Source: Candidatus Omnitrophota bacterium (GTDB lineage Bacteria; Omnitrophota; Gorgyraeia; Zapsychrales; Zapsychraceae). From it: DNA of 64,000 bases. This document shows positions 151-59,811 of this stretch, in pieces (position 1 is the first letter of the stretch; each line of letters begins with the position of its first letter). The stretch spans positions 133-64,132 of the forward strand of contig JAIORP010000030.1 in assembly GCA_021108075.1 (NCBI GenBank), written 5' to 3'. The notes beneath the pieces are model-generated. The model was not told the origin of the DNA. It saw nothing but the letters and a program-made list of their open reading frames with translations, and ran no database searches. Made by a program: the position numbers and the translations under genes.

Positions 151-783
151 TTACTCCACGAGGTTATTTTTTATGGCGTAATGGGTGATTTCAGCATTAT
201 TTTTCATGTTCGTTTTTTCAAGAATGCGTGCCCGGTAGGTGCTGATGGTTTTGACGCTTAAGGCCATCTCATTGGCAATCTCGGAAACGGTCTTCCCGGA
301 CGCGATTTTGCAAAACACTTCGTATTCGCGGTCAGAAAGTGTTTCATGCAAAGGCCGTTTTTTATCCAGCCCAATATCGTAAGCTAACCGTTCCGCCAAT
401 GTCTCGCTGATATATTTCCGTCCCGAAGCCACCTTTTCTATGGCACCGATTAACTTGCTTGTTTCAGAAATTTTTGTGATATAACCGGCTGCCCCGGCCC
501 GAATAGAGCGGATAGCGTATTGTTCTTCCGGGTGTGTGCTGATGATTAAGACGGGGGGATGCTTTTTCATATCAGAGATTTGTTTAAGGGTGTCAATTCC
601 GCCTTTTCCGGGCATTGAGATATCTAAGAGAATAACATCAAATATTTTTTTTTTGATTAAGGCAAGGACCTCTGAACCATTGTCTGCTTCGGCTGTTACT
701 TGAATGTGGCCAGCATCATTCAGGATTTGTTTTAGACCTGCTCGAACAATAGGGTGGTCATCAGCAATGAGTATTTTAATCAT
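151..783 (-). CDS. Two-component response regulator, NarL/FixJ (LuxR-type HTH) family
   Basis: The N-terminus has a receiver motif (IADDHPIVRAGL, phospho-acceptor D in LLDISMPG). The C-terminus is a LuxR-type HTH (LSDREYEVF...GKTVSEIANEMALSVKTISTYRARIL). It sits immediately downstream of a HisKA_3-type kinase on the same strand. Confidence 0.85.
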   Translation of the reverse strand: MIKILIADDHPIVRAGLKQILNDAGHIQVTAEADNGSEVLALIKKKIFDVILLDISMPGKGGIDTLKQISDMKKHPPVLIISTHPEEQYAIRSIRAGAAGYITKISETSKLIGAIEKVASGRKYISETLAERLAYDIGLDKKRPLHETLSDREYEVFCKIASGKTVSEIANEMALSVKTISTYRARILEKTNMKNNAEITHYAIKNNLVE

Positions 784-789
784 AGTATT

Positions 790-2451
790 TTAATATATCT
801 GTTTATTCAGCTCCATGTTCTCGGAGATGGGTATTGATATTGAAATGAGAGTACCTTCTTTTTCTGACCCAACGATGGAGATTGTGCCTGAAAGGAATGT
901 CACGCGTTCGTTCATCCCGATCAGCCCAAATGATTTTTTGTTTTCAATATTGTTTTTTTTGATGCCGATGCCGTTATCCTGAATTGTTAAAGAAATATAT
1001 TTTCTCCCGATGCGTAACGTTGTCGATACCTTTGTCGCTTGTGCATGCCGGGCAATATTTGTCAGGGATTCCTGGTACAGGCGAAATATATTTGTTGCCA
1101 GATCCTTAGTCGGAAGGTCAGGACCTTGGATTGTTAATTCGAAATGGACGTTATTCCTTTTTCTGAATTCTTCTGTGTACCATTCAATGGCGGCAAACAA
1201 CCCCAGATCATCAAGAATACGGGGTCTTAATTCTTTTGTTAATCGTTGAGTGGTCGTAATCGTATTGTTCACAATTTTCATCGATTCTCGAATTTTTTTC
1301 TTTATCGTCTTTTGACCGAATATCCTTTTATGAATCCATTCCAGGTCAAAATGTAATGCGGTAAGGGCGTTGCCTAATTCGTCGTGAATATCACGGGCGA
1401 CATTTGTTCGTTCTTCCTCGCGAATTTTCATCAAGTGTTGGGCTAATGACCGGAATTGTTCTTTGGAATTTTCGAGGGCTTTTGTTCGATTGAGGATCGT
1501 TTTTTCTAAGTCCCGATGATACCGTTCAAGTATTTGTTCATTATTAACACGATCATTGATGATTCTGGCGATGGCTAAGATCGTTTTATTGTCAGGTTGC
1601 CTGCTCAAAACCCATTCGATCCAGCCGTAGTTTCCCTCGCTTCCAAGGCAATGGCCCTGAAAATTAGCCGGAGTTTCTCCCTGCATCAGTTTTTCGAATT
1701 GGTTTTGTAGACGTAAGCGGTCTTCAGGGTGCATGAAATCAAATAACGTTTTATTAAAAATATCATCTAATTTAAATCCTAATTCTATTTCACAGGCTTT
1801 GTTGATTTTAATAAACCGTCCTTTAGGGTCGACCTCCATTATGGCGAGGTTAGACCGTTTGATGATATCATTGAGCCTGAGATTGACATGATTGGAGATT
1901 AAGTTATGATGTTTATGTGTTTTTAATGTTAAATGTTGTCCCAGAAAATTAGCCATGATTTCGATGCTATAAATATCCTTGTCTGTGAAATCAGATGTTT
2001 TTGATCCTGTTGAAGCAAAGCATAATGTGCCGTAAAGTTTTTCTCTGACATATATAGGTGTGCCGATGTATGTTATGAGACCTAATTGTTCAAAGTAGTT
2101 TTGCTTTTCAGACTTAAAGGTGTTTGATTTGCGAGTGAACCAAACGGTTTTGCTTCCTCTGATAATTTCAGCACAATAGGTCTGATCGAGTACCAGGATA
2201 TTATTTGTCTGAAAGTGGATGTGTGGGCTTTGCACGGCAAGTATTTTATAGTTTTGACCATTGACTTTGCTGAGTAATCCATTCTCCATCCCAAATAGTT
2301 GAATCCCGGTTTTCAAGTAAGCATTAAACATCTTCGATGAATGAGTAAAATTTTGCTGAGTCAGGGAGTGTATCGCGTGAAGCGCTGTGTTGTTTGATTC
2401 CTTATGGCGAGTTTTCTTTGTTTTGGTGTGATAGATGTTTTTCATAAACAT
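790..2451 (-). CDS. Cytoplasmic sensor histidine kinase with GAF-like and PAS-like modules plus HisKA_3/HATPase
   Basis: It has an H-box (RDIHDELGNALTALHFDLEW), an N-box (LYQESLTNIARHA) and a G-box (DNGIGI...FGLIGMNER). No transmembrane segment is visible. It pairs with the adjacent LuxR-type regulator. Confidence 0.75.
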   Translation of the reverse strand: MFMKNIYHTKTKKTRHKESNNTALHAIHSLTQQNFTHSSKMFNAYLKTGIQLFGMENGLLSKVNGQNYKILAVQSPHIHFQTNNILVLDQTYCAEIIRGSKTVWFTRKSNTFKSEKQNYFEQLGLITYIGTPIYVREKLYGTLCFASTGSKTSDFTDKDIYSIEIMANFLGQHLTLKTHKHHNLISNHVNLRLNDIIKRSNLAIMEVDPKGRFIKINKACEIELGFKLDDIFNKTLFDFMHPEDRLRLQNQFEKLMQGETPANFQGHCLGSEGNYGWIEWVLSRQPDNKTILAIARIINDRVNNEQILERYHRDLEKTILNRTKALENSKEQFRSLAQHLMKIREEERTNVARDIHDELGNALTALHFDLEWIHKRIFGQKTIKKKIRESMKIVNNTITTTQRLTKELRPRILDDLGLFAAIEWYTEEFRKRNNVHFELTIQGPDLPTKDLATNIFRLYQESLTNIARHAQATKVSTTLRIGRKYISLTIQDNGIGIKKNNIENKKSFGLIGMNERVTFLSGTISIVGSEKEGTLISISIPISENMELNKQIY

Positions 2452-6305: not shown

Positions 6306-7156
6306 TGGATGAGTTTATCAAGAAAGCAAGTGTTTTAATTGAGGCTATTCCGTATATCCATTCTTTTAGACGGAAATTATTTGTCATTAAATATGGTGGA
6401 AGCATACTGGATGACGTTGAGATCCGGCGAAAAGTTTTAGAAGATATCGTCTTTTTGAGCTATGTGGGGATCCGGACGATCCTAGTGCATGGCGGCGGCC
6501 CTCGTATCAGCTCGAGGGTTAAAGAGGCGGGACTAACGCCGGAGTTTCATGATGGCATTCGAGTCACGGACGAAAGCACGTTGAGTATCGTTAGCGAAGA
6601 GTTGGACAGGCTGAATAAAAAGATCGTTGAAGAAATCACTTCGCTCAAAGGTGATGTCACCGGTTTGAAGGGAAGTGAGAATATTATCCATGTCGAAAAA
6701 AGAAAATCAGAAAGAGATTTAGGATTCGTTGGGAGGATTACGGCGATTGATCATGATCAACTTCAGGCTCATTTGCGGCAAGGACATATCACGGTTATAT
6801 CCCCTATGGGGATCAGTGTTGATCAGCAACCACATAATGTTAATGCTGATGAAGTTGCCAGTGCCATATCCGCATCCATGGGCGCTGAGAAATTGGTGTT
6901 GCTGACAAATGTCCATGGCGTCTTAAAGGAAGCTCAGGATATATCATCATTGATTTCCACCCTGCGTATCAATGAGATCAGTGATTTGATCAATAAAGAC
7001 ATTATTCATGGGGGAATGATCCCCAAAGTAACGGCCTGTGTGGATGCCTTACGCAGTGGGGTAAAGAAAACTCACATCATTGATGCCAGAATCGAGCATG
7101 CTTTGCTTCTCGAGTTTTTTACCAACCGTGGTGTGGGAACCCAAATTATTCATTAA
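6306..7156 (+). CDS. argB: Acetylglutamate kinase
   Basis: It has the amino-acid kinase motifs FVIKYGGS and LVHGGGP. The ORF-track start at 6200 runs into argJ, so the start is placed at ATG 6306 (MDEFIKK...). Confidence 0.85.
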
Positions 7157-27769: not shown

Positions 27770-28084
27770 ATGCTAAAAGTTCTGTCCGAAAATAATAAAG
27801 GCGTTGTCTTTGTGACGGTCATAATGATCATTATGGTGATTATGGTGCTGGCCGTCAGTATTGTGAGTGTGAATTTAAACCAAGTGATAGCAACGGAAGA
27901 AGAATATAAGAGGGCTCAAGCGGAGATTCTTGCTATGGGGGCTTTCAGGTATTTTCACGCGAACTATGTGGACAGTGCTTCAGCCAACTCTTTGGTGTAT
28001 TTAAGAACCATTGATGATGTGACCTACACCGTTAATTCGATTTTGTCCGCATCCGGACAATTAAATATTGTTGTTACATACTAG
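27770..28084 (+). CDS. Hypothetical single-pass membrane protein, possibly pseudopilin-like
   Basis: It has one N-terminal hydrophobic helix (VVFVTVIMIIMVIMVLAVSIV) and no G/FTLIE prepilin motif. Its start abuts the previous stop. Confidence 0.3.
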   Translation: MLKVLSENNKGVVFVTVIMIIMVIMVLAVSIVSVNLNQVIATEEEYKRAQAEILAMGAFRYFHANYVDSASANSLVYLRTIDDVTYTVNSILSASGQLNIVVTY

Positions 28085-28255: not shown

Positions 28256-29875
28256 GTGGTCTTAAAAATTATTTTTAAGATGATGTTATCGCGTCAGAAG
28301 CTCTTCCAATACGACATTACACACATGGGGGAAAAAAAACAGATAGCAACTTTTTGGGGAGACAATGCCCTCTATTTTATAGAGGCAAATCAGTCTTCCG
28401 CCTCCAACGGATTCCATGTCCCGTTTGATCACAAGCGAACGTCTGCCGATGAGAATCAAGTCCTTACGTCGGATAATATGGAACTGTGTTCCCGCGTTCA
28501 AAACGCTTTCCATCAGAACAACATACAAAATGCTATTGTCAACCTGTCTTTGCCGATTAAAGACATCATTTTTCGTTCCTTTATGATCCCCATGATGCAG
28601 TCTAACGAAGTTGCCGGGGTTATCGCCTTTGAAGTGAAAAAATATATTCCGTTTTCTTTAGATGAACTTTCTTATTCTTTTCATCCGGTTGTTGTCGATG
28701 GTGCCAATGATAAGAGGATACGCATTATCTTTGTCGCTATTAAAAAGAACTCATTGGAAAAATATATAGATATTTTGGAACAAGCTTCTTTAAATGTTGA
28801 CGTGATTGAACCCGCTCCGTTGAGTTTGATACGCCTTTTAGTGCATAAAAATATCCTTTCTTCTCAAAAAGCTTTGGCCCTTGTTGAAAAAGAAGATATG
28901 ACAGGTAAGATTATTATCGTTGAGAACAATATCCCCCAGTTTGTTCGGGAATTTCATCTTCGGTCAGCTGCTGACTCTCAAGACCCGGATGAAGATCAGA
29001 CTATCAACCGTTTGATCAATGAAATTCGGATTTCTTTAGATTATTTTAACCGACACGAAAATCAAATTTCTATCGAACAGATGTATCTTTTAACCGATCA
29101 GTATGGAACCAGGATATCAGAGCAAATAAAGGATGAGTTGGAGGTTGATGTCGTGCTTGTCGATAAAGCTCAGCTTATGGAGGGGATTCCCGGACATGAT
29201 TCGGGATTTTTAAAGGCCTACGGGGCGAGCTTGGCCGGTGTCATAACGATGCCCGCTTCGTTTAATTTATCCGGTGGAAAACCGCGTTCGATTAGTCTCG
29301 ATAAAAATAGCATTAATGTTAAGGCGTTAGTCGCATCCCTGTTGAAAGTTTCTATTTGTTGTGTTCTAGTCCTTGGTTTAGCTTTTTATGCGAAGGTTAA
29401 AATTGTTAGCGGAACAAAGCAAGAGATGATTGCTTTTACGCAGAAATTGGATATGAATAAAGATTCTTTGAAGGAAAAATTGGAACAGCATAATATAACT
29501 TTACAAAATCGATTTGATAATATTAAGAGTATTCGTTCCCATAGTCAAGTCGGTTTTTTTTTGGATACGATCCCGACTTTTTTATTGGATGGGATGTGGA
29601 TCAAGTCTTTAGAAATTTATTATCCGCCTGCAATCCTTAACTCAACCGGTGGTGCCCCGCAAGACGCTGGTCCGGTGATCAATTTATCGGGCTATGCTTA
29701 CGTTGATGATAAGAAGGAACAGTTCAGCATAATAACTTTATTCCTGAAGAGCTTGAAGTCCAATAAAGATTTAAAAAAGTATTTCAATGAAATCGATTTA
29801 GAGACAGTTACGGCTCAGAAGTTTAATGAATACGATGTTACTTTTTTTAAAATTAAATTTCGGAAAAAATTATGA
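28256..29875 (+). CDS. Type IV pilus assembly PilM-like (actin-like ATPase) fused to a PilN-like transmembrane domain
   Basis: It is 539 aa. The cytoplasmic N-terminal part is PilM-like (IRIIFVAIKKNSLEKYIDILEQASLNVDVIEPAPLSL). An internal transmembrane helix (LLKVSICCVLVLGLAFYA) is followed by about 170 aa of PilN-like periplasmic sequence. PilO, PilP and PilQ genes follow. Confidence 0.5.
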   Translation: MVLKIIFKMMLSRQKLFQYDITHMGEKKQIATFWGDNALYFIEANQSSASNGFHVPFDHKRTSADENQVLTSDNMELCSRVQNAFHQNNIQNAIVNLSLPIKDIIFRSFMIPMMQSNEVAGVIAFEVKKYIPFSLDELSYSFHPVVVDGANDKRIRIIFVAIKKNSLEKYIDILEQASLNVDVIEPAPLSLIRLLVHKNILSSQKALALVEKEDMTGKIIIVENNIPQFVREFHLRSAADSQDPDEDQTINRLINEIRISLDYFNRHENQISIEQMYLLTDQYGTRISEQIKDELEVDVVLVDKAQLMEGIPGHDSGFLKAYGASLAGVITMPASFNLSGGKPRSISLDKNSINVKALVASLLKVSICCVLVLGLAFYAKVKIVSGTKQEMIAFTQKLDMNKDSLKEKLEQHNITLQNRFDNIKSIRSHSQVGFFLDTIPTFLLDGMWIKSLEIYYPPAILNSTGGAPQDAGPVINLSGYAYVDDKKEQFSIITLFLKSLKSNKDLKKYFNEIDLETVTAQKFNEYDVTFFKIKFRKKL

Positions 29876-30459
29876 ATTTATTAAAAAAATTAAACAGTAT
29901 TGATATGCAAGATCTAAAAAATATTGATGTCGGCCAACTTGTTGATCTTTTGCGGTCGCGTGTCGATCTTTTAGCTAATGTTATTGTTGTTCTGTTGACG
30001 ATCATCCTTGCCGTCTATTGGCCGATCCAAAGCCTAAAACAAAAAAAGGATAATCAATCTTCAATTAATCAATACAAAGAAAAACAGGATATTTTGGACC
30101 AGCACGCCGTGATTGAGTCTGATTACAATGCCTATGTCGAAACATTTCCTAAATCGGTTTCAAGTGATCAATTGACAAATATCATTTCGATCATGGCTGT
30201 TAAAAACAGTGTACAGATTGTATCTTTTTCTCCGGCACAAAGAAATTCAAACGATTATCGTGATATTATAAATGTTCGAATTCAAATTGCGTCAGAAGAT
30301 TATGCCAATATAATACTATTTGTGAAAGATCTGGAGGCTTCAGAATATTCGATGCGTGTCGAAAGGTGGATCAGTGACTCCGCGCGTACGATATATAACG
30401 AACAAGGGAGTATGATTAAGGCGGATTTAGAAATCGCTTCCGTGTCTTTAAAATTATGA
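29872..30459 (+). CDS. PilO-like type IV pilus assembly protein
   Basis: It is 195 aa, with a single transmembrane segment near residue 35 and a periplasmic domain. Its position is between pilM/N and pilP/Q, and its start overlaps the previous stop. Confidence 0.45.
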   Translation: MNLLKKLNSIDMQDLKNIDVGQLVDLLRSRVDLLANVIVVLLTIILAVYWPIQSLKQKKDNQSSINQYKEKQDILDQHAVIESDYNAYVETFPKSVSSDQLTNIISIMAVKNSVQIVSFSPAQRNSNDYRDIINVRIQIASEDYANIILFVKDLEASEYSMRVERWISDSARTIYNEQGSMIKADLEIASVSLKL

Positions 30460-30962
30460 AAGATTGCATTTTATTGATTATCATTTTGGGATTTTTGATG
30501 AGTTTTGATTTTGTTTGTGCGAATGAACAAACAAAAGAAGACAGTGTTTCTGATGATACGATCGAAAAAATGAGGGTAAATTATTCGATGAACCCGTTTA
30601 AACCACAGTTACCGAAAAAGACAGTTCCGCCGGTAAACACCTCTGTTCGACAACCGCCGCGACAGCTTCCGGTTAACCCTTCGAAGAAAACACCGTCGAA
30701 CAGGACGCCGTCCGCTGTGCCGCAGACAACCTCAAATCAAACGGACCCTCAGAACATCGATATCCCGATTGTTGATCCGGTGGTGACGTTGCCCCCATTG
30801 GATATTTCAGGGTTGATTTGGGATACCGATCGGCCTCAGGCTATTATTAATAATAAAATTTTGGAAATTGGTGATATTGTTGATGAATTTAAAATAATAC
30901 ACATCTATAAGCAGGGTGTTACCGGGCATTATCAGGGAAAGGATTTTACGATAACACCTTAA
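30456..30962 (+). CDS. PilP-like secreted protein
   Basis: It is 168 aa with a signal peptide, a Pro-rich linker and a C-terminal beta-domain (ILEIGDIVDEFKIIHIY). It lies immediately upstream of the secretin gene. Confidence 0.4.
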   Translation: MKDCILLIIILGFLMSFDFVCANEQTKEDSVSDDTIEKMRVNYSMNPFKPQLPKKTVPPVNTSVRQPPRQLPVNPSKKTPSNRTPSAVPQTTSNQTDPQNIDIPIVDPVVTLPPLDISGLIWDTDRPQAIINNKILEIGDIVDEFKIIHIYKQGVTGHYQGKDFTITP

Positions 30963-30978
30963 TGAGGAGTATGCAATA

Positions 30979-32586
30979 ATGAGACAAAAGCTTCCTTGCT
31001 TGGTTTTCTGGACGTTTTTATCGGTTCTCTTTTTCGTCCAGCCTGTTTTGAGTTACGACTGGGACGAATATGATTTATATTCAGGTGACAACGAAAACTT
31101 AAAGATCATTTCTATGGATTTTAAGAATGCGGCTTTAGGCGATGTGTTAAAGATTTTTTCTCAACAATCCGGCATGAATTTTATTTCTTCATCAGAAATT
31201 GCTGATAATAAAATTAATCTTTATCTGGAAAATGTTCCGGTTAAAGAAGCGCTTGAGCGGATTTTGACCGCTAACCAATTAACATATGAGTTAAAAACAG
31301 GCAGCAATATTTTTGTTGTTAAACCATTAAATGTCCCTGAACTTCAACTTGAAACAAGAATTTATCAGCTAAAACATGCAACGGTGCCTTCATCTAAAAT
31401 AAATTCGACTTTGTCTGGCTTCGGTGACGAGCAGGGCTCAGAAGAGGGGGGTGGTTCTGGCGGTGAATCGGGGGAGAGTGGCGGTAGCGGAGGGGAGTCC
31501 GATGATAGTAAGGGCATTCTTGGAATGGTTAAAAATATGTTATCAGAAAAGGGCAACATGGTTGAAGATGCCCGTACGAACAGCATTATCATCACCGACA
31601 TTTCAACGCAGTTCGCCAGGATTGAACTTGCCATCGCCCGTCTGGATGTACGCATTCCGCAAATTTTGATTGAGGTTGAGATGCTGGATATTTCATCCAA
31701 TACAGCTGATTTGATAGGGACCAAATTTGGGGATACTCCTGTTACTTTTTCCGCCGGGGAGAAAGACGGCTCGTTCCCTTTTGAAGAAGATAATATCATT
31801 GATGATGCTGGCGGTATCCGGACGACTGCCTATGAGGACGCGCAGTATCGGGTCAGTACGCTTTCTTTTAAAGGACTTACATTTTTAATGCAGTTTTTAC
31901 GCACACAGACAGATACGAACAATTTAGCCCGGCCTCGTATTTTAACGTTGAATAATGAAACAGCCGAGATTCATATTAAAACAGATGAAGCGATCGGTAT
32001 TTCTGCGAATACGACTTCCGCTGAAGGAACAGCAACGAGTGTCAATGAAGCTGAACGTGTTGCGACGGGTGTGTTTTTGACTGTGACGCCGCAAGCAAAT
32101 ACACACACCGGAGAAATAATGCTGGCGATTGAACCGAAGGTGATTCAGGCCAGGACCGGAGGAACGTTTAGCGGGCAGTCTTTCAAGGATCCTGAAGAAC
32201 GTGGCACAAAATCTATCTTACGTGTACAAAGTGGTCACACGGTTGTGATCGGCGGGTTGTTGCGCACAGACATTTCTGAAGTTAAGACGAAGGTGCCCCT
32301 GTTGGGTGATGTGCCTGTTGTTGGTAAAGTTTTTCAGCATTTGGATAAGACCGAAACGAAACGGGAGCTTATTATTTTTATTACTCCAAGTATCGTAAGT
32401 GAAGATCGAGCAAAAATTTCTTACTCAGAAAGGGAACCTATGATGCGCGAACGGTCCTTTTACAACGAGCGCAATGAATCGATCCGGGAAGACTTACAAC
32501 GTGAAGAGTTGAGAGATAACATTTTGAAGCGTGAAGACGCGACTCCGTATTATTCCATTGGTATTGATAAAGAATTAAATCATTAG
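30979..32586 (+). CDS. Secretin (PilQ/GspD family)
   Basis: It has a signal peptide and an N0-like domain (NFISSSEIADNKINLYLENVPVKEALERIL). It has the secretin C-domain motif VPLLGDVPVVGKVF...RELIIFITPSIV. It contains a Gly/Ser/Glu-rich insert. Confidence 0.85.
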   Translation: MRQKLPCLVFWTFLSVLFFVQPVLSYDWDEYDLYSGDNENLKIISMDFKNAALGDVLKIFSQQSGMNFISSSEIADNKINLYLENVPVKEALERILTANQLTYELKTGSNIFVVKPLNVPELQLETRIYQLKHATVPSSKINSTLSGFGDEQGSEEGGGSGGESGESGGSGGESDDSKGILGMVKNMLSEKGNMVEDARTNSIIITDISTQFARIELAIARLDVRIPQILIEVEMLDISSNTADLIGTKFGDTPVTFSAGEKDGSFPFEEDNIIDDAGGIRTTAYEDAQYRVSTLSFKGLTFLMQFLRTQTDTNNLARPRILTLNNETAEIHIKTDEAIGISANTTSAEGTATSVNEAERVATGVFLTVTPQANTHTGEIMLAIEPKVIQARTGGTFSGQSFKDPEERGTKSILRVQSGHTVVIGGLLRTDISEVKTKVPLLGDVPVVGKVFQHLDKTETKRELIIFITPSIVSEDRAKISYSEREPMMRERSFYNERNESIREDLQREELRDNILKREDATPYYSIGIDKELNH

Positions 32587-32603: not shown

Positions 32604-34343
32604 ATGGCCCGATTAAAACTAGGTGAGATTTTAATCAATCAAGGTTTAATTTCTCAAGAGCAATTGCAAAAGGCAATTGATACTCAGAAGAGAGAGAAAC
32701 GCGGCCGGATTGGAGAAGTTTTAATGAAGCTTGGAATCATCACCGAAGAGTCCATGAATTCGGCGTTGGCATCCCAGTTGGGCATTCCGTATTATTCTTC
32801 GGATAATACGGATCTTCTCAAACCTCGCGAAGACCAGGGATTAGAGTCCATCCTGGACGGTGATTTTGCCAGAAAAAATTTGGTCCTACCCCTTTCCAAA
32901 CATATGAATTCGTTAACCTGTGCGGTCAATGATCCCCTTGATTTGCTTTTGCTAGACAATTTAAGGCGAATTGCGGGCTGTGAGGTCAATATCGTTTTGA
33001 CCACGAAGAATGCTTTGCAAAAAGCGATTGCGGATTTTTATTATTCTGATAAAGGTGATGGGAAATCGAGCATGCTTAATCAGGCCGTTGAAAAATCTTA
33101 TTCATCAAATCAATCCAGTTCCTTTGTGACATCCGGGCAGAAAGAATCGGCTTCGGCTGAATTAAGTTTAGACAAACTGATCGAGAAGGCCGGTGAGGCC
33201 CCTGTCGTAAAATTGGTCGATCTGATCATCCGTCAGGCGATTGATGAGCGGGCGAGTGATATTCATATTGAGCCCTATAACAGTAAAATCAATTTACGAT
33301 ACCGGATTGATGGCAAGTTGTATAATATCCCACCGCCTGCGCCACATTTGCATTTACCGATTGTTTCACGTATTAAGATTTTATCCAAACTGGATATCGC
33401 TGAAAAACGTTTGCCTCAAGATGGCGCGATTTCTGCCAAGCTGGAAGACAGGACGGTTGATATTCGTATCTCAACAGTTCCAACGGTCTGGGGTGAGAAA
33501 GTTGTTATGCGTATTCTCGATAAAGGGGCTGTTCCTCTGGAACTCGCCAGCTTGGGATTTTCCCCTAAGCAGATTGATATGCTGCGCAACGCGTTAAGCT
33601 CGCCTTACGGCCTGTTTTTTGTTACCGGACCGACAGGAAGTGGTAAGTCAACAACACTCTATGCGGCCTTAAACGAGACAATTGACCCATCAAAAAATGT
33701 TATGACCGCGGAAGATCCGGTCGAATATAAGATCGACGGGATTAATCAGGTCGCCATTCGAACCGAAATCGGATTGACTTTTGCGATAGCACTAAAAGCG
33801 TTCCTACGTCAAGATCCGGATGTCATTATGGTCGGGGAGGTCCGTGATATTGAAACAGCGTCTATCTGTGTCCGCGCCGCTTTGACGGGTCACTTTGTCT
33901 TGAGTACGTTGCATACGAATGATGCCGCATCAGCAATAACTCGTTTGATTGATATTGGCGTGCCGCATTATTTGTTAACGCCATCTTTGATCATGATTTT
34001 AGGGCAACGGTTATGTCGTCGATTGTGTTCAAAGTGTAAGGAACCTTATGAGCCCACACCAGACCAACACGCCGGGAATAAATTTACCAGTGATTTAATT
34101 TACAGGGGCAAAGGTTGTGAAGACTGCAACAGCACCGGCTATAAAGGCCGTCTTGTTATATCAGAGGTCCTGGCTATCGATGATTCGATTCGAGCGGCGG
34201 TTTCAAATGGAGCAACATGGGCTGAATTAAAAGAATTAGCCCGTAAGAATGGGATGGATACGATTTTTGAATCAGGACTCCGTTTAATTGAACAGGGTTT
34301 AACAAGCTACGATGAGGTTTGTCGAGTGACAATGGAATATTAA
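32604..34343 (+). CDS. Type IV pilus / T2SS assembly ATPase (PilB/GspE/MshE family)
   Basis: It has Walker A GPTGSGKSTT and a tetracysteine zinc motif (CSKCK...CEDCNSTGYKGR). Its N-terminal domain carries two tandem MshEN-type motifs. Confidence 0.9.
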   Translation: MARLKLGEILINQGLISQEQLQKAIDTQKREKRGRIGEVLMKLGIITEESMNSALASQLGIPYYSSDNTDLLKPREDQGLESILDGDFARKNLVLPLSKHMNSLTCAVNDPLDLLLLDNLRRIAGCEVNIVLTTKNALQKAIADFYYSDKGDGKSSMLNQAVEKSYSSNQSSSFVTSGQKESASAELSLDKLIEKAGEAPVVKLVDLIIRQAIDERASDIHIEPYNSKINLRYRIDGKLYNIPPPAPHLHLPIVSRIKILSKLDIAEKRLPQDGAISAKLEDRTVDIRISTVPTVWGEKVVMRILDKGAVPLELASLGFSPKQIDMLRNALSSPYGLFFVTGPTGSGKSTTLYAALNETIDPSKNVMTAEDPVEYKIDGINQVAIRTEIGLTFAIALKAFLRQDPDVIMVGEVRDIETASICVRAALTGHFVLSTLHTNDAASAITRLIDIGVPHYLLTPSLIMILGQRLCRRLCSKCKEPYEPTPDQHAGNKFTSDLIYRGKGCEDCNSTGYKGRLVISEVLAIDDSIRAAVSNGATWAELKELARKNGMDTIFESGLRLIEQGLTSYDEVCRVTMEY

Positions 34344-34365: not shown

Positions 34366-35604
34366 TTGCCAAAATATTCATATATCGTTAAAAATAAGGC
34401 CGGTGTTGAAGAAAAAAATGTTGTGGATGCCGTTAGCCAACAATCTCTTATAGAGAAGTTGCAACGCGAAGGTTACTTTATTGTTCGCGTGTTAGAAATC
34501 AAAACGACGTCCCATTTAAAGAAGAAAACATCCAAAAAAAACGAAAAGAGAAAATTTAGTCGTAAAAAAACTAAGTTGGAGGATCTTTTATCTTTTTCCC
34601 GTCAGTTAGCAACGATGTTAGAAGCGGGGGTTTCACTGATCCGCAGCCTTGATGTCATCCTGATTCAGGTGCAGAGTGAAGAGCTATACAATATATTAAA
34701 AGCCTGCAAGAAAGATGTCGAACAGGGTATCGCGTTAAGTGTTTCTTTGTCCAAGTATCCGAACGTCTTTAACCAGTTTTGGGTCAGCCTTATTGAAGTG
34801 GGTGAGGCTTCGGGTACTGTCCCTGTCGTTTTAAACAAACTTTCTTTTTATTTAGAACAACAGGCTGAATTCCGGGCGACCATTATTTCGGGCCTCATTT
34901 ATCCCGCTATTTTATTTATGGTCGCTGTTGGGGCTATTGCATTTTTTGCCCTGTTTGTGGGTCCGCGTTTTCAGTCGATTTTTGATTCAATGAACGTGGA
35001 TTTACCGATGATTACGGTTGTTTTATTGGCATCCTTTTCTTTTCTTAAAAAGAACATATTTTTGATTATCGCCGGAATCGTCGCGGGTGTATTCTTTTTA
35101 AAAAAATATATCAAAACATATCAAGGTAAATTACTTTTTGAAAAAGCTATGTTCAATATGCCTGTTTTTGGTGAGGTGTACCGTTTAATTATTGTTGAAC
35201 GCTTTACATCTCAGATGTCCATCTTGATTGATGCCGGTGTACCCATTTTATACGCCTTGGATATATCCGAACGTTTAGTCGATAATAATTCTTGTGCCAT
35301 GATTATCAGCACAATTAAAGAAGGCGTCCGCGAAGGGGAATTATTGGTCGCGCCCATGACGCGCAGTGGTTTCTTTCCAGCTATGTGTTTGCAGATGATT
35401 ATGGTCGGGGAAGAAACAGGTGAATTGAGTAAAATGTTGAAACACGTGTCAGCTTATTATCAAGATCTGGTTTCAACTTTTATGAAAAGGTTTGCGACGA
35501 TTGTTGAGCCATTTATGTTGGTTTTTATGGGGGGTGTCATCGGAACCATTGTTCTGGCCATGTTTTTACCAATGTTTAATATCGCACAACTAGGGGGAGG
35601 TTGA
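34366..35604 (+). CDS. Type IV pilus inner-membrane platform protein (PilC/GspF family)
   Basis: It has two GspF repeats and about 412 aa of polytopic membrane sequence. Confidence 0.85.
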   Translation: MPKYSYIVKNKAGVEEKNVVDAVSQQSLIEKLQREGYFIVRVLEIKTTSHLKKKTSKKNEKRKFSRKKTKLEDLLSFSRQLATMLEAGVSLIRSLDVILIQVQSEELYNILKACKKDVEQGIALSVSLSKYPNVFNQFWVSLIEVGEASGTVPVVLNKLSFYLEQQAEFRATIISGLIYPAILFMVAVGAIAFFALFVGPRFQSIFDSMNVDLPMITVVLLASFSFLKKNIFLIIAGIVAGVFFLKKYIKTYQGKLLFEKAMFNMPVFGEVYRLIIVERFTSQMSILIDAGVPILYALDISERLVDNNSCAMIISTIKEGVREGELLVAPMTRSGFFPAMCLQMIMVGEETGELSKMLKHVSAYYQDLVSTFMKRFATIVEPFMLVFMGGVIGTIVLAMFLPMFNIAQLGGG

Positions 35605-35770: not shown

Positions 35771-35940
35771 TTTCTTAGAAACATGTTGAGCTTTATTGTT
35801 AAATGTAAACTACTCGTAAGGGTACGACACAAAACTATAGGGCCCTGGAAGTGCGGTATTTGAGCACTTTAATTTATAGATGAAGGAATAAAACGACATC
35901 TGCAGGGGTAGCCAGTTGCCAATAAAAAAGGTTGTGTATA

Positions 35941-35974
35941 CCTATTCTACGATAGCTAGAATAGGTTTTTTTTT
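35941..35974 (+). terminator. Intrinsic terminator or attenuator inside the pilin leader region
   Basis: The stem is CCTATTCTA / TAGAATAGG (9 bp perfect) with loop CGATAGC, followed by T9. Confidence 0.6.
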
Positions 35975-36058
35975 GAGGCTTCTTGGAGAAAGGGAAATTA
36001 GAAAAAATAGAACAATAATGTCAGGAAAATCAAAAAGGAAAGTAAGTAAAAAAGGAGC

Positions 36059-36481
36059 TTGAACATGAATTTAAATAACAAAAGTGGTTTTACATTACTC
36101 GAAATTATCATTGTCATCATCATCGTTGGTGTACTCGCCAGTTTAGCATTACCTCGATTTTTCAGCACCGTGGAATTCTCCAGAAGTACAGAAGCTCTTT
36201 CAGCATCAAGTTCAATCCGTCAATCATTAGAGCGATGTTATTTAGGGAATAATGGGAATTATGTCGGCTGTACGCTAGCCGCGATTGACTTAGCTGATCC
36301 CGGCGGATCACCAGGTGCTCATTTCGCGTATGCTATTGCTGGTCAAAGCGCCACAGGATACACAATCACAGCGACAAGAAACGCTATTAATGGCGGTGAC
36401 GGCACATCAGCAATCACCCTCACTCAATCTGCTGCGGGTGTTGCAAGAGCGGGTACAGGCGTTTTCGTTGGCATTAAATAA
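36059..36481 (+). CDS. Type IV pilin (probable major pilin)
   Basis: It has the class III signal ...KSG/FTLLEIIIVIIIVGVLASLALP. AAGGAG sits 6 nt upstream. A long hairpin follows it. An alternative start at 36065 is possible. Confidence 0.85.
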   Translation: MNMNLNNKSGFTLLEIIIVIIIVGVLASLALPRFFSTVEFSRSTEALSASSSIRQSLERCYLGNNGNYVGCTLAAIDLADPGGSPGAHFAYAIAGQSATGYTITATRNAINGGDGTSAITLTQSAAGVARAGTGVFVGIK

Positions 36482-36565: not shown

Positions 36566-36591
36566 CGTCCTGAAACAAATGGTGATTGCTT

Positions 36592-36975
36592 ATGATATTC
36601 AGTCAGAAAGGTTTCACATTATTAGAGGTATTGATCACTATGATCATTATTGGGGCAATGGCTTCCATCGCCTGGCCCAGCTTTGTTGTCACAATTGAAC
36701 GGGCAAAATCGGCTGAAGGGGTTCAGATCCTGGAAGTCATAATGGGTTCCCAAAAGATATATAAATTAGAAAATGGGGTTTATTCCAATACTATGGCAAA
36801 CTTAGAAGTCTCAATCCCTGCCGCCAGTAATTTTAATGCCCCGACATTGAGCACGTCCAATCCAATCGCTTCTATTCAACGAAAAGATAATTTATATACA
36901 TTGTCCATTACGGACGCCGGGGTAATCGCCTGTTCCAATGGTACTGTAACATACTGTCAAAAGATAGGGTATTAG
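36592..36975 (+). CDS. Type IV pilin or minor pilin
   Basis: It has the leader MIFSQKG/FTLLEVLITMIIIGAMASIAWP. Confidence 0.8.
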   Translation: MIFSQKGFTLLEVLITMIIIGAMASIAWPSFVVTIERAKSAEGVQILEVIMGSQKIYKLENGVYSNTMANLEVSIPAASNFNAPTLSTSNPIASIQRKDNLYTLSITDAGVIACSNGTVTYCQKIGY

Positions 36976-36978
36976 AAC

Positions 36979-37404
36979 ATGAAGAACTTAAAGGGTTTTA
37001 CATTGCTGGAAATTATTATTGTTGTCATTTTGCTGAGTATTATCGCGGGATTTGCTATTCCCTCGTATAACAAATCCATGCGCCGCACGCATGAACAGGA
37101 TGCTGTTGTTCAATTGACAGCCCTGCATGTGGCAAATGAATTATATGAAGCTCAGGCTGATCAATATTTACAGGGTGCGGGACTATCGTTGACGCAGGTT
37201 AACAATGGACTCCACATCAGTATCATGGCCAATGAGATGACTTATAGCTATACGTCAGGGGCTGGCAGTTATGCCGCAACATCTTCGTGGAACGAGACAG
37301 GAACAAGCCATGACTTCACTTTACGGGTGAATCAAACAACGATTTCTTCGTCCAATCCCTGTTGTTCAGCGGGTACTTGTCCAACGGTTGCTAATTGTTC
37401 TTAA
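36979..37404 (+). CDS. Type IV pilin or minor pilin
   Basis: It has the leader MKNLKG/FTLLEIIIVVILLSIIAGFAIP. Confidence 0.8.
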   Translation: MKNLKGFTLLEIIIVVILLSIIAGFAIPSYNKSMRRTHEQDAVVQLTALHVANELYEAQADQYLQGAGLSLTQVNNGLHISIMANEMTYSYTSGAGSYAATSSWNETGTSHDFTLRVNQTTISSSNPCCSAGTCPTVANCS

Positions 37405-37418
37405 AAAGAAGGTTATTG

Positions 37419-37760
37419 ATGTTACGGATAAGAAAGAAAAATGGGGTGTCTATCGTTGAAGTCGTTGTTACGGCCATTATTTTTTCCATTGCGGCTTTTG
37501 GGGTTTTTTCGACCATCGCTGTTCTGCGTCCACAGGGCCAGGATTCAATGAAAAAGCTGCAGGCGCTTTATACGGGGAAGAGTATTTTAGATGAATTGAT
37601 TATGGCTGTTGATGCTCACACGTGGGGTTCTGGTTTGAGTAATTTGGCCCTGGGACATCATAGTCGTGTGATCGGTAATTACACCATTAATTATTATGTA
37701 GCCGATGTTACCGGCCAGGGTTTGCGGCAAGTCTATATGAATGTGAGTTATCCGGATTAA
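37419..37760 (+). CDS. Minor pilin-like protein with a degenerate prepilin motif
   Basis: It has ...KKNG/VSIVEVVVTAIIFSIAAFGVF. The start is chosen at ATG 37419 with AAGAAGG upstream. The ORF track extends to 37395. Confidence 0.55.
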   Translation: MLRIRKKNGVSIVEVVVTAIIFSIAAFGVFSTIAVLRPQGQDSMKKLQALYTGKSILDELIMAVDAHTWGSGLSNLALGHHSRVIGNYTINYYVADVTGQGLRQVYMNVSYPD

Positions 37761-37761
37761 T

Positions 37762-38367
37762 ATGAAGTATATTTTTTTAAAAAATAAAAAAGGTCTGACG
37801 TTAACGGAACTGATTGTTGCCACCGTCATGATCGCGATTGTCATGGTCGGCGTTGCCGCCTTTACGTTTGCGGTGAAAAGCATTCAAGGCACAAGTAGAA
37901 AGGCGTCGATCACGTCCATGCGTTTAGCAGCTGTTATGAGCAAGCTGCGCAAGGATGCGATGCTTGCTGTCGGAGACATTAATAATCTCGGCATCGTTTC
38001 TAACAATACAGGAGATGATAGAGGATTGTGTTTCCGACATGATGCAGATAATGATCCAGCGACGTATACGGGTGATCAATGGGTCTGTTATGTGACATAT
38101 GGCACCGGAGATACCGGTTTGCGAGTTTGTGAAGGATTAGCCTCAGCAGATACCGATTGCGGCCAGGCTGGTCCACCGAACGATAAGCAGTTAATTGAAT
38201 TAACAAGCAAGAATTATTTTTCCATCTCATTGGACGGACAAGGGCGTTTAGCTGAATTGCAGATAACGCTAACTGCTCGGGATGATTCTTCTGCCGTGGC
38301 AGACCCGTTAGAAAATCCTGAGTACACACTCACCACAAAGGTCTTTCCTGTTGGGCATAGCTGGTAA
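37762..38367 (+). CDS. Minor pilin-like protein
   Basis: It has ...KKG/LTLTELIVATVMIAIVMVGVAAF. It is 201 aa. Confidence 0.6.
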   Translation: MKYIFLKNKKGLTLTELIVATVMIAIVMVGVAAFTFAVKSIQGTSRKASITSMRLAAVMSKLRKDAMLAVGDINNLGIVSNNTGDDRGLCFRHDADNDPATYTGDQWVCYVTYGTGDTGLRVCEGLASADTDCGQAGPPNDKQLIELTSKNYFSISLDGQGRLAELQITLTARDDSSAVADPLENPEYTLTTKVFPVGHSW

Positions 38368-38471
38368 TGATTTGTATATTTATTCTGTCTCTCCCCAAAT
38401 ATATGGAAATGCTTGTCATAAATCTTGTGTTTTGATAATATGAAATCTCCAAAATGAAATTTATATTAATT

Positions 38472-38544
38472 GGGTCGGTAGCTCAATTGGGAGAGCACAT
38501 GGTTCGCAATCATGAGGTTGGGGGTTCGATCCCCCTCCGATCCA
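38472..38544 (+). tRNA. tRNA-Ala (anticodon CGC)
   Basis: It folds into a cloverleaf by hand. The acceptor stem GGGTCGG/CCGATCC has the G3:U70 Ala identity pair. The D-loop is AATTGGGA and the anticodon loop is TTCGCAA. The T-loop is TTCGATC and the discriminator is A73. CCA is not encoded. A TTGTCA-17-TAATAT promoter lies upstream. Confidence 0.8.
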
Positions 38545-38571
38545 TTCTTAATAATTTTTTTTAATTTGTAT

Positions 38572-39312
38572 ATGTATCGATTTTATACTCCAAACTTAGA
38601 TTTATCAAAAGATGACGTTATTTTGGCTAACGCTAAAGAGCGCCATCACCTGCAACATGTTTTACGTTTGAAGGCAGGGACGGTCGTTTATTTGTTTGAT
38701 GGCGATGGTAATGAGGTTCAGGCTAAAATTAACCATTTTGAAGAGATGCGGATTCATTTCGATGTCGTTTCCAGGAATTTTAAGTCTTTATCTGTGCCAC
38801 AAATTATTTTAGCATGTGCGATTCCCAAAAGATCTAAATTTGAACTCATCATTGAAAAAACGACAGAGTTGGGCGTTGCTGAAATTTATCCGATGATCAC
38901 TCATCGAACAGAATTGAAAATGAAAAAGGAAGGGTTGCACAGAAAGGACGAACGCTTTTCATCTGTGGCTGTTAATGCTGCGAAACAAAGTCAGAGAGCG
39001 CATGTCCCGGTCATTCATCCGATCGAGCCGTTCAAGTCCGTTTTGCCCGTGCTTGCCGAAAGAGGTGTTACCCTTATCCCGAGCTTAATCGGTGAGCGAA
39101 AGCCATTATGGCAAGTGATCCGGCATTTAGACAAACCTGATCTGATATCGTATTTCATCGGGCCTGAAGGTGACTTTACTCCACAGGAATATGAACATGC
39201 TTTTCGTTGTGGTTGTCAATCAGTTTCTTTAGGTGAAACGATTTTGAAGGTCGAAACCGCTGCAATCTGTGTGATTTCAGCTCTGCATTTATTTTATTCT
39301 GATGACTATTGA
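38572..39312 (+). CDS. rsmE: 16S rRNA (uracil1498-N3)-methyltransferase
   Basis: It has the RsmE-type N-terminus MYRFYTP... with a PUA-like domain followed by a SPOUT methyltransferase domain (YFIGPEGDFTPQE). The start is moved to 38572 so that it does not overlap the tRNA. Confidence 0.7.
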   Translation: MYRFYTPNLDLSKDDVILANAKERHHLQHVLRLKAGTVVYLFDGDGNEVQAKINHFEEMRIHFDVVSRNFKSLSVPQIILACAIPKRSKFELIIEKTTELGVAEIYPMITHRTELKMKKEGLHRKDERFSSVAVNAAKQSQRAHVPVIHPIEPFKSVLPVLAERGVTLIPSLIGERKPLWQVIRHLDKPDLISYFIGPEGDFTPQEYEHAFRCGCQSVSLGETILKVETAAICVISALHLFYSDDY

Positions 39313-59346: not shown

Positions 59347-59811
59347 TTAATTTGTTTGATCATCCGGAACTTCGGGGGTTTTTATCTCCGTTGAAACAGA
59401 TTCTCCGATAGACGTCCATCCGTTAAACCATTTATTGACCATGTCTGATTTATTGATTTCAAACGCATGCTCGTAAATGAGATTACGATCTGGATCACTG
59501 ATATACTTGAATCTGATGCCCAACTTTTTTTCTTTACCGTTTATGCTTGTCCAAATAACTTGTCCTTTGATGTATATGGATTTCGCCGGGGCAAGCAAGA
59601 TTTTGAGCCAGAGAATGTCAGATGTGGGATTTTGGGTGTCTGTAATGACACAGGTTCCTACATAATTGAGGTCTTTTGTGAATGCGGAATAAAGCGTCGT
59701 ATCCTGGGGGAGATGGTAATGGACATGATTACGGGCCAGCCATCGGGGGAGATATCTAGCATCCGAAGGTTTTAAATTGTTAACAGTACCATTTGTTTCA
59801 GGCAGAATCAT
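59347..59811 (-). CDS. Hypothetical protein, possibly PilZ-like
   Basis: It is 154 aa. It has an RxxxR-like motif (RYLPR) ahead of a beta-rich region. The assignment is weak. Confidence 0.25.
   Translation of the reverse strand: MILPETNGTVNNLKPSDARYLPRWLARNHVHYHLPQDTTLYSAFTKDLNYVGTCVITDTQNPTSDILWLKILLAPAKSIYIKGQVIWTSINGKEKKLGIRFKYISDPDRNLIYEHAFEINKSDMVNKWFNGWTSIGESVSTEIKTPEVPDDQTN

Follow-up and report, generated by a model that had tools for sequence, protein, structure and literature searches.

Two tandem MshEN motifs predict c-di-GMP control of a GspE/PilB-family assembly ATPase in Omnitrophota

Background

MshEN domains, receptors of cyclic di-GMP (c-di-GMP), had been recognized in more than 10,000 proteins by 2016, including PilB, GspE and other architectures (PMC5013675). 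We describe here a GspE/PilB-family assembly ATPase encoded in a 64,000-nucleotide stretch of DNA from a Candidatus Omnitrophota bacterium (GenBank assembly GCA_021108075.1, contig JAIORP010000030.1; hereafter the window), whose N-terminus probably forms a receptor of the same kind. Given the size of the family and the fact that a curated NCBI model recognizes the ATPase, the protein joins a known receptor family. Of modest further interest, an MshEN ATPase and a GEMM-I pilin leader occur together as a conserved pair within one Omnitrophota clade.

Among the closest described systems is MshE of Vibrio cholerae (structure 5HTL). Like our ATPase, it carries two tandem 24-residue motifs, a four-helix bundle, an alpha/beta subdomain and a GspE-type ATPase; the likeness extends to the proposed role, that of extension ATPase in a type IV filament machine. 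The two proteins are about 27% identical. They differ at the first position of motif I (R in MshE, K in our ATPase), in the hydrophobic triads (Leu in MshE, I or M at three positions here) and in the spacer between the motifs (five residues versus six). Binding has been measured for MshE, whereas the Omnitrophota ATPase is known from sequence and its organism is uncultivated. In V. cholerae, c-di-GMP binding by MshE promotes extension, and a G11I mutant is without pili (PMC7096442).

The GSPII-B domain of Thermus thermophilus PilF (8PDK) shares with our ATPase the LKLGE start of motif I, with Lys at position 1, and the overall fold. PilF has three consecutive GSPII domains and the Omnitrophota ATPase one; motif II of GSPII-B begins with Leu and is one residue shorter, whereas ours begins with Arg and has full length. 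Loss of c-di-GMP binding by PilF lowers twitching and adhesion in T. thermophilus (PMC11731258). A single N-terminal MshEN domain before a PilB ATPase, as in our protein, is found in the PilB proteins of Myxococcus, Geobacter and Chloracidobacterium (3JC8, 5TSG, 5ZFR), which gave the best full-N-domain sequence matches after PilF (E = 2e-18 to 9e-15). These PilBs have Arg at both first positions and lie in canonical type IVa pilus loci with PilT; our ATPase is about 40-45% identical to such relatives. Spacer length also varies among them, being seven residues in Geobacter PilB and five in Myxococcus PilB, as read from alignments. In the Xanthomonas PilB N-domain-PilZ-FimX relay (7LKO) and in XpsE (2D27), the common N-terminal fold is used for protein docking. 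The N-domains of these proteins have lost c-di-GMP motif residues (PMC5013675), whereas the Omnitrophota ATPase retains all of them.

Omnitrophota are uncultivated and mostly ultra-small, and type-IV-pilus-like machines have been proposed to serve them in host or prey attachment (PMC10066038). No paper that we found connects the pili of Omnitrophota with c-di-GMP, and the genomic surveys of the phylum that we consulted (for example, PMC10066038) do not mention such a link.

Results and discussion

Two MshEN motifs at the N-terminus of the ATPase

The translation of the ATPase starts MARLKLGEILINQGLISQEQLQKAIDTQKREKRGRIGEVLMKLGIITEESMNSALASQLGIPYY, and two tandem 24-residue MshEN motifs lie within its first 58 residues (numbered with Met = 1), separated by a spacer of six residues instead of the canonical five. 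The features of the gene are the following:

32604-34343 (+), GspE/PilB-family assembly ATPase, 579 aa (Pfam, NCBIfam)
32616-32687 (+), MshEN motif I, residues 5-28, KLGEILINQGLISQEQLQKAIDTQ (regular expression; alignment to MshE R9-Q32)
32688-32705 (+), spacer, residues 29-34, KREKRG (alignment; loop between helices 2 and 3 of the AlphaFold2 (AF2) model)
32706-32777 (+), MshEN motif II, residues 35-58, RIGEVLMKLGIITEESMNSALASQ (regular expression; alignment to MshE R38-Q61)
32781-33053 (+), MshEN C-terminal alpha/beta subdomain, residues 60-150 (Pfam PF05157; AF2 model)
33186-34325 (+), N2 plus C-terminal ATPase core (T2SSE), residues 195-574 (Pfam PF00437)

An initial annotation of the window had placed two tandem MshEN motifs at the N-terminus of the ATPase, within 32604-32790. 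Both of the peptides that it quoted are indeed there, although it gave them as residues 4-27 and 34-57, a trivial off-by-one. The strict consensus of 2016, RLGxx(L/V/I)(L/V/I)xxG(L/V/I)(L/V/I)xxxxLxxxLxxQ, specifies 12 positions. Motif I agrees with it at 10, the deviations being K for R at position 1 and I for L at position 21, and motif II at 9, with I for L at position 2, M at position 7 and M for L at position 17. The description of the match as almost exact thus holds for motif I and is slightly generous for motif II. All of these deviations are conservative. Moreover, the authors of the consensus searched with a relaxed pattern, [RKPN]hGxxhhxx[GAS]hhxxxxhxxxhxx[QNKRYWST] (PMC5013675), and an extended consensus of 2024 starts (R/K/L)LG... 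(PMC11731258); motifs I and II alike satisfy both. The six key residues are K-L-G, L, I and Q in motif I and R-I-G, M, L and Q in motif II, with every Gly and Gln present.

A chance origin of the tandem motifs is excluded. When the whole window is translated in six frames, the relaxed pattern turns up exactly twice, both times at the motifs of the ATPase. Among random 60-mers of the same composition as the ATPase, a single match arose at a frequency of 5.5e-5 and a tandem match in none of 200,000 trials.

Whether the motifs are in register with those of MshE is a question that the Pfam family named MshEN (PF05157, T2SSE_N), suggested in the initial annotation as a check, does not address. It matches the ATPase with 55.3 bits, over residues 60-150 only: the Pfam model represents the C-terminal subdomain and leaves out the binding motifs, and a match to it is therefore uninformative on ligand binding or motif register. 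We therefore judged the register by the NCBIfam model NF053729 ('cyclic di-GMP-binding domain, MshE-related') and by direct alignment to 5HTL. Residues 5-58 match NF053729 over the full profile (positions 1-53 of 53; 59.7 bits, cutoff 38, E = 1.8e-16). In the phmmer alignment to 5HTL, R9/L10/G11 of motif I correspond to K5/L6/G7, G18 to G14 and L25/L29/Q32 to L21/I25/Q28; in motif II, R38/L39/G40 correspond to R35/I36/G37, G47 to G44 and L54/L58/Q61 to M51/L55/Q58. The alignment has a single indel, within the spacer (KNTGR in MshE, KREKRG in the ATPase), and 22 of 22 key positions are identical or conservative with respect to MshE. The claim that the motifs are in register with MshEN is borne out by the full-profile match and by the confinement of the indel to the spacer. 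The counterpart of MshE R7, which makes a phosphate contact (PMC11731258), is R3, and GSPII-B of T. thermophilus PilF, starting LKLGE, is in register with the motifs as well.

The substitutions that accompany loss of binding in known homologs are a further point of comparison. The non-binder XpsE carries G11V, I19R, L29R, R38G, G40L, L54H, L58C and Q61V (PMC5013675); none of these eight listed changes has a counterpart in the motifs of our ATPase. Lys at position 1 of motif I is native to PilF GSPII-B, whose dissociation constant for c-di-GMP is 6 nM, and the exchange K167R makes binding 25-fold weaker (PMC11731258). Since Lys is the native state in that domain, K5 should not be regarded as a defect.

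Conservation of the motifs

The nearest database proteins to the ATPase come from metagenome-assembled genomes of Candidatus Omnitrophota (Omnitrophica), at 68-76% identity. Across 120 Omnitrophota orthologs, G7, Q20, G37 and Q58 are invariant, while Q28 is present in 119 and R35 in 114. Position 5 is K in 94 orthologs and R in 24, and position 6 is L in 110 and I or V in the rest. Both motifs were detected by regular expression in 87 of the 120, with a spacer of five residues in 81 cases and of six in 6. Residue R33 corresponds to an insertion in the spacer that is missing from 113 orthologs; by this comparison, the extra R33 of the window ATPase is a minority feature. The catalytic elements of the motor are invariant over the same set: Walker A (GPTGSGKST), Walker B (DPDVIMVGE-RD), the His box (TGH..STLHTN) and the tetracysteine motif (CxxC...CxxC).

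As a background, we used 162 diverse PilB/GspE relatives from other phyla, among the matches listed, gathered by scans of genome and metagenome contigs with generic ATPase peptides such as VWGEKVVM, QDPDVIMV and AEKRLPQD. The relatives from these contig scans are, among the matches listed, mostly 40-45% identical and from other phyla. Among the 162 matches listed, 21 have two motifs, 72 have one and 69 have none. That only 21 of the 162 listed relatives keep the pair suggests that an intact pair is a retained trait and not the default of the family.

Predicted fold

An AF2 model of residues 1-150, computed with 37 orthologs, reached a mean predicted local distance difference test score (pLDDT) of 85.9. 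It has helices at residues 6-12, 18-31, 36-42 and 48-59, forming a four-helix bundle, followed by a C-terminal subdomain of the N-domain with three strands and three helices (pLDDT about 90). The model matches the described architecture of an MshEN_N four-helix bundle and an alpha/beta MshEN_C (PMC11731258). The top PDB match in Foldseek was 5HTL, 'MshE with cdg' (E = 1.5e-8, template modelling (TM) scores 0.77/0.83, root-mean-square deviation 2.7 A); the c-di-GMP-bound GSPII-B domain of PilF, 8PDK, was also matched (TM 0.79/0.84).

A putative c-di-GMP receptor in the motor ATPase

The N-terminal bundle of the ATPase probably binds c-di-GMP as in MshE and PilF GSPII-B and thereby controls the motor. 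The proposal of c-di-GMP control made in the initial annotation is supported computationally by the register of the motifs, their conservation in 120 orthologs and the predicted fold; each of the computational checks capable of contradicting it came out in its favor. Both ligand binding and its coupling to motor activity we infer by analogy with these two proteins. By homology, a single c-di-GMP molecule would be held by both 24-residue motifs, each clamping one of its guanines, with the Hoogsteen edges read by the backbone amides of G7/E8 and G37/E38. On their outer faces the guanines would be stacked upon by K5 and R35, on their inner faces by the hydrophobic triads L6+M51+L55 and I36+L21+I25; Q28 and Q58 would keep the ribose-phosphate ring in place. 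We expect the N-terminal bundle to turn, on binding, with respect to the alpha/beta subdomain (residues 60-150), which would alter how active the hexameric motor is or how it engages the PilM/PilC-like platform, so that the level of c-di-GMP would set filament assembly. If MshE and PilF are a guide, c-di-GMP would activate extension.

Several observations weigh against this proposal. The six-residue spacer is a minority form (6 of the 87 two-motif orthologs), and we found no experimentally tested MshEN example with exactly this spacer length. In the hydrophobic triads, I36, I25 and M51 stand in place of Leu; in MshE, Leu-to-Ala changes cause a more than 10-fold loss of affinity. No gene for a GGDEF, EAL or HD-GYP protein was found in the window among the gene-like listed open reading frames (ORFs) of at least 100 aa that were scanned, so that c-di-GMP turnover in this genome is taken from phylum-level literature only; GGDEF domains and PilZ genes have been reported in Omnitrophota (preprint 10.1101/2023.11.21.568195). 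The OFF riboswitch that we predict in the pilin leader (see below) would oppose an activating role of c-di-GMP at the ATPase. Such opposing signs may reflect either an incoherent two-level circuit or an inhibitory role of c-di-GMP in this lineage. Finally, Foldseek also matches XpsE (2D27/2D28), PilF GSPII-A (9G1W) and the N-domain of Xanthomonas citri PilB (7LKO). With the non-binders XpsE and GSPII-A and the PilZ-binding PilB among the matches, the fold shows homology only, and our prediction of the ligand rests on the motif residues.

These same-fold proteins, among them the X. citri PilB-PilZ complex, invite another explanation: the MshEN fold and motifs may be kept only for structure or for docking, to PilM/GspL or to a PilZ-type adaptor, without physiological c-di-GMP binding. 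Loss of the site is common, as the relatives without a motif (69 of the 162 among the matches listed, against 21 with both) illustrate, and the window does contain a PilZ-domain ORF:

59347-59811 (-), PilZ-domain ORF, 154 aa (Pfam PilZ PF07238, 31.9 bits, cutoff 22.5)

However, the known non-binders are disrupted at Gly, Gln or Leu (XpsE, PMC5013675; motif II of GSPII-A, PMC11731258), whereas our ATPase is identical or conservative at all 22 key positions, the Gly and Gln residues at its predicted ligand contacts vary little or not at all among the 120 orthologs, and the NF053729 cutoff is exceeded by more than 20 bits. The PilZ ORF, for its part, lies 25 kb from the pilus cluster in an unrelated neighborhood, among genes for an rRNA dimethylase, PdxA and a thioesterase. 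Its R19YLPR23 fits RxxxR; its D47LNYVG52 reads DxNxxG, with Asn in place of the Ser of (D/N)xSxxG. The PilZ-like gene of the initial annotation thus passes Pfam, yet it is without the canonical DxSxxG and unlinked; distance, unrelated neighbors and the altered motif mean that it adds little to the c-di-GMP context. We rejected the ORF as a Xanthomonas-style partner of PilB for want of any linkage or synteny evidence. Taken together, we regard a purely structural or docking role as quite unlikely, and c-di-GMP binding as the better explanation of the conserved motifs.

A GEMM-I riboswitch homolog upstream of the pilin genes

The initial annotation had also pointed to a structured leader before the pilin gene. 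A c-di-GMP riboswitch and a terminator directly upstream of the major pilin gene of a type IV pilus cluster are known from Clostridioides difficile pilA1 (Cdi-2-4; PMC6366702), a layout that our locus resembles. The C. difficile riboswitch is of class II and an ON switch, whereas the Omnitrophota element is of class I (GEMM-I) and predicted to be an OFF switch; a further difference is that the pilin genes of our locus follow those for the ATPase and the platform protein. Two elements were identified in the leader:

35795-35924 (+), GEMM-I (c-di-GMP-I clan) riboswitch-like aptamer, sub-threshold (permissive Rfam scan of the pilC-pilin spacer)
35940-35975 (+), intrinsic terminator with a 10-bp stem (35940-35966) and T9 (riboswitch expression platform)

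For the window aptamer, the best member of the clan is RF03167, with 35.2 bits against a gathering score (GA) of 59 (E = 6.3e-7). An aptamer element is found at the equivalent intergenic site in ten Omnitrophota relatives (designated by L numbers), and the gathering thresholds are exceeded in four of them: RF01051 scores 57.8 in L033, 51.8 in L168 and 48.5 in L014 (GA 35), and RF03167 scores 60.7 in L164 (GA 59). The element of L169 was detected by pattern only. The window leader is thus a homolog of c-di-GMP-I riboswitches by sequence, while its status as a functional c-di-GMP aptamer is putative: the structured leader stands as a GEMM-I homolog, with the window copy sub-threshold and its G20 altered. 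At the equivalents of G20, A47 and C92 (Vc2 numbering, our own mapping of the alignment columns), the window has U/A/C (AAAUGUAAAC), and eight aligned relatives have G/A/C. G20 and C92 have ligand-contact roles (PMC6140456), and the G/A/C of the relatives is, on this mapping, the c-di-GMP-specific combination. An assignment of the relatives to the 'GGC' ligand-variant class, whose model is their best match, was considered and rejected, the A47-equivalent being A and not G (CACAAA, against GCGAA in the variant).

Two positions that are invariant in the eight aligned relatives are altered in the window aptamer: G20 is replaced by U, and a G-to-C change disrupts the first hairpin at its outer pair. 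The loop of the second hairpin is enlarged as well, by an insertion of about 55 nt. Large insertions in the second hairpin, of tens to about 100 nt, also occur in L165 (8267-8371) and L169 (about 6672-6833); since they are shared by several lineages, the insertion alone is no sign of decay.

The altered G20 bears on a further alternative for the ATPase, namely that the physiological ligand of its pocket is another cyclic dinucleotide such as 3'3'-cyclic GMP-AMP (cGAMP). The identity of G20 sets the specificity for c-di-GMP or cGAMP in GEMM-I and GEMM-Ib, and the U of the window riboswitch would fit a change of ligand; the N-domain of MshE, too, binds cGAMP measurably, with a dissociation constant of 3.3e-4 M (PMC5013675). 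This affinity is nonetheless about 600-fold below that for c-di-GMP, and both half-sites of our ATPase still have the Gly-x backbone that reads guanine, together with the hydrophobic triads. Moreover, the riboswitches of the relatives read as c-di-GMP-specific at G20/A47/C92, and the window revealed no cGAMP synthase. We consider a ligand other than c-di-GMP highly improbable.

The expression platform provides a possible switching mechanism. The 5' arm of the terminator, CCUAUUCUACG (window 35940-35950), is conserved in sequence in L014, L033 and L164-L169, and it can form 11 bp with the first hairpin of the aptamer, in its loop and 3' strand (CGUAAGGGUAGG; window 35817-35828). When the leader is folded without the 3' arm of the terminator, the pairing between the 5' arm and the aptamer forms in most loci. 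In L033, there is one compensatory change, with a GUGA loop facing a UCAC arm. The antiterminator duplex of the window is weak (-6.1 kcal/mol). An antiterminator that competes with the aptamer predicts an OFF-switch layout, in which a ligand-stabilized aptamer would lead to termination. This reading comes from thermodynamic folding; for the aptamer, we used the alignments of Rfam. The minimum-free-energy fold of the leader is uninformative (z = -1.9), and an RNAalifold consensus of the eight relatives pairs GGUAA with UUGCC, contrary to the Rfam architecture.

The pilus locus of these Omnitrophota appears to be under two-level c-di-GMP control, possibly with opposite signs. We may speculate that, in this clade, an OFF riboswitch terminates the pilin operon at high c-di-GMP while the MshEN domain activates the ATPase, yielding a pulse of piliation; in the window, the RNA and protein sensors would have diverged in ligand, or the RNA arm would be decaying and the protein arm kept. 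We put this circuit forward as an unlikely, frankly speculative scenario. Should the ATPase bind c-di-GMP as we propose, c-di-GMP would be the host-attachment switch in the phylum, with the motor ATPase as its reader and, for this clade, the riboswitch of the pilin operon as a second one. For the c-di-GMP field, the protein would add another member to the MshEN family, with a Lys-first motif of the type associated with very high affinity.

Nature of the filament machine

The ATPase gene adjoins the secretin and platform genes, with five prepilin genes downstream. Besides the ATPase and the leader, the locus comprises the following genes:

27770-28084 (+), small pilin-like ORF, 104 aa, no Pfam match (hydrophobic N-terminus MLKVLSENNKG/VVFVTVIM...)
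28256-29875 (+), PilM/GspL-like inner-membrane assembly protein, 539 aa (PilM_2 45 bits, T2SSL 27.6 bits)
29872-30459 (+), PilO-like protein (Pfam PilO 25.3 bits)
30456-30962 (+), small accessory protein with a weak T2SSB-like match (Pfam T2SSB 23.4 bits, under cutoff)
30979-32586 (+), outer-membrane secretin (Pfam Secretin, Secretin_N, STN)
34366-35604 (+), platform protein of the PilC/GspF family (two Pfam T2SSF matches)
36059-36481, 36586-36975, 36979-37404, 37395-37760 and 37762-38367 (+), five consecutive prepilin-type genes (Pfam N_methyl, TIGR02532)

The order is thus pilin-like ORF, PilM/GspL, PilO, T2SSB-like gene, secretin, ATPase, platform gene, a leader of 455 nt and the prepilin genes, followed by tRNA-Ala and a gene for an RsmE-type methyltransferase. 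Close Omnitrophota loci were collected one by one for the study of synteny, and the gene order is unchanged in every relative fetched; all of them have the PilM/GspL-like gene in synteny, and relatives carry a gene at the position equivalent to 30456-30962.

The ATPase core is a strong match to Pfam T2SSE (PF00437, 442 bits; residues 195-574, profile positions 2-370 of 370). Its finer classification is less clear. The label 'PilB-type' of the initial annotation is right in that the protein belongs to the GspE/PilB family, but it falls under the cutoffs of both equivalogs, with 599.4 bits for PilB (TIGR02538, cutoff 675.65) and 580.7 bits for GspE (TIGR02533, cutoff 630.25). We may thus ask whether the ligand site works in a machine that is in fact a pseudopilus resembling a type II secretion system (T2SS), in which case c-di-GMP would gate secretion and not piliation; this would contest the words 'pilus motor' and leave the binding claim untouched. 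The near-equal scores of the ATPase (599 and 581 bits) are compatible with such a machine. The platform protein favors GspF (327 bits) over PilC (289 bits), the secretin is almost equally close to PilQ (184 bits) and GspD (181 bits), all of these being under cutoff, and the 539-aa PilM-like protein, which scores 62 bits against TIGR01175 pilM (also under cutoff), matches T2SSL as well. The order of L-like, M-like, small gene, D, E, F and five prepilins resembles gsp operons, and MshEN-type T2SS ATPases are known to bind c-di-GMP (PMC5013675). Neither a PilT retraction ATPase nor a prepilin peptidase was found in the window among the gene-like listed ORFs of at least 100 aa. On the other hand, no GspK-like (T2SSK) or GspC match was found at the locus, the last prepilin has 201 aa only, and Omnitrophota genomics classes such loci as type-4a pili, which are expressed in V. 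archaeovorus (PMC10066038). We consider a T2SS-like machine unlikely, though with some chance of being right, and take a pilus motor as the tentative reading.

All five prepilins match Pfam N_methyl, the fourth with 19.2 bits under a cutoff of 21.2 bits; four of the five pass the cutoff of TIGR02532, for which the fourth has no match. The first prepilin ORF was listed with a TTG start at 36059. An ATG at 36065 is preceded by an AAGGAG ribosome-binding site and is probably the true start, giving a typical short class-III leader (MNLNNKSG/FTLLE). The small ORF at 27770-28084 has a counterpart upstream of the PilM-like gene in relatives (L161, positions 225-569; 39% identity, E = 3e-24) and could be a further component of the machine, of pilin-like or membrane type.

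Other features of the window

The tRNA-Ala (CGC) at 38471-38545 (+) overlaps the called start of the RsmE-type methyltransferase ORF (38512-39312), which places the true start of that gene further downstream. Over the whole window (positions 1-64000), nearly all gene-like ORFs have + orientation, and each 4-kb block shows a positive GC skew (0.08-0.17); it seems that the window is leading-strand sequence from a single replichore. The window contains largely complete gene sets for arg, dap/lys and his biosynthesis. A two-component pair at 151-2451 (-) encodes a GAF-PAS histidine kinase with HisKA_3 and a LuxR-type response regulator.

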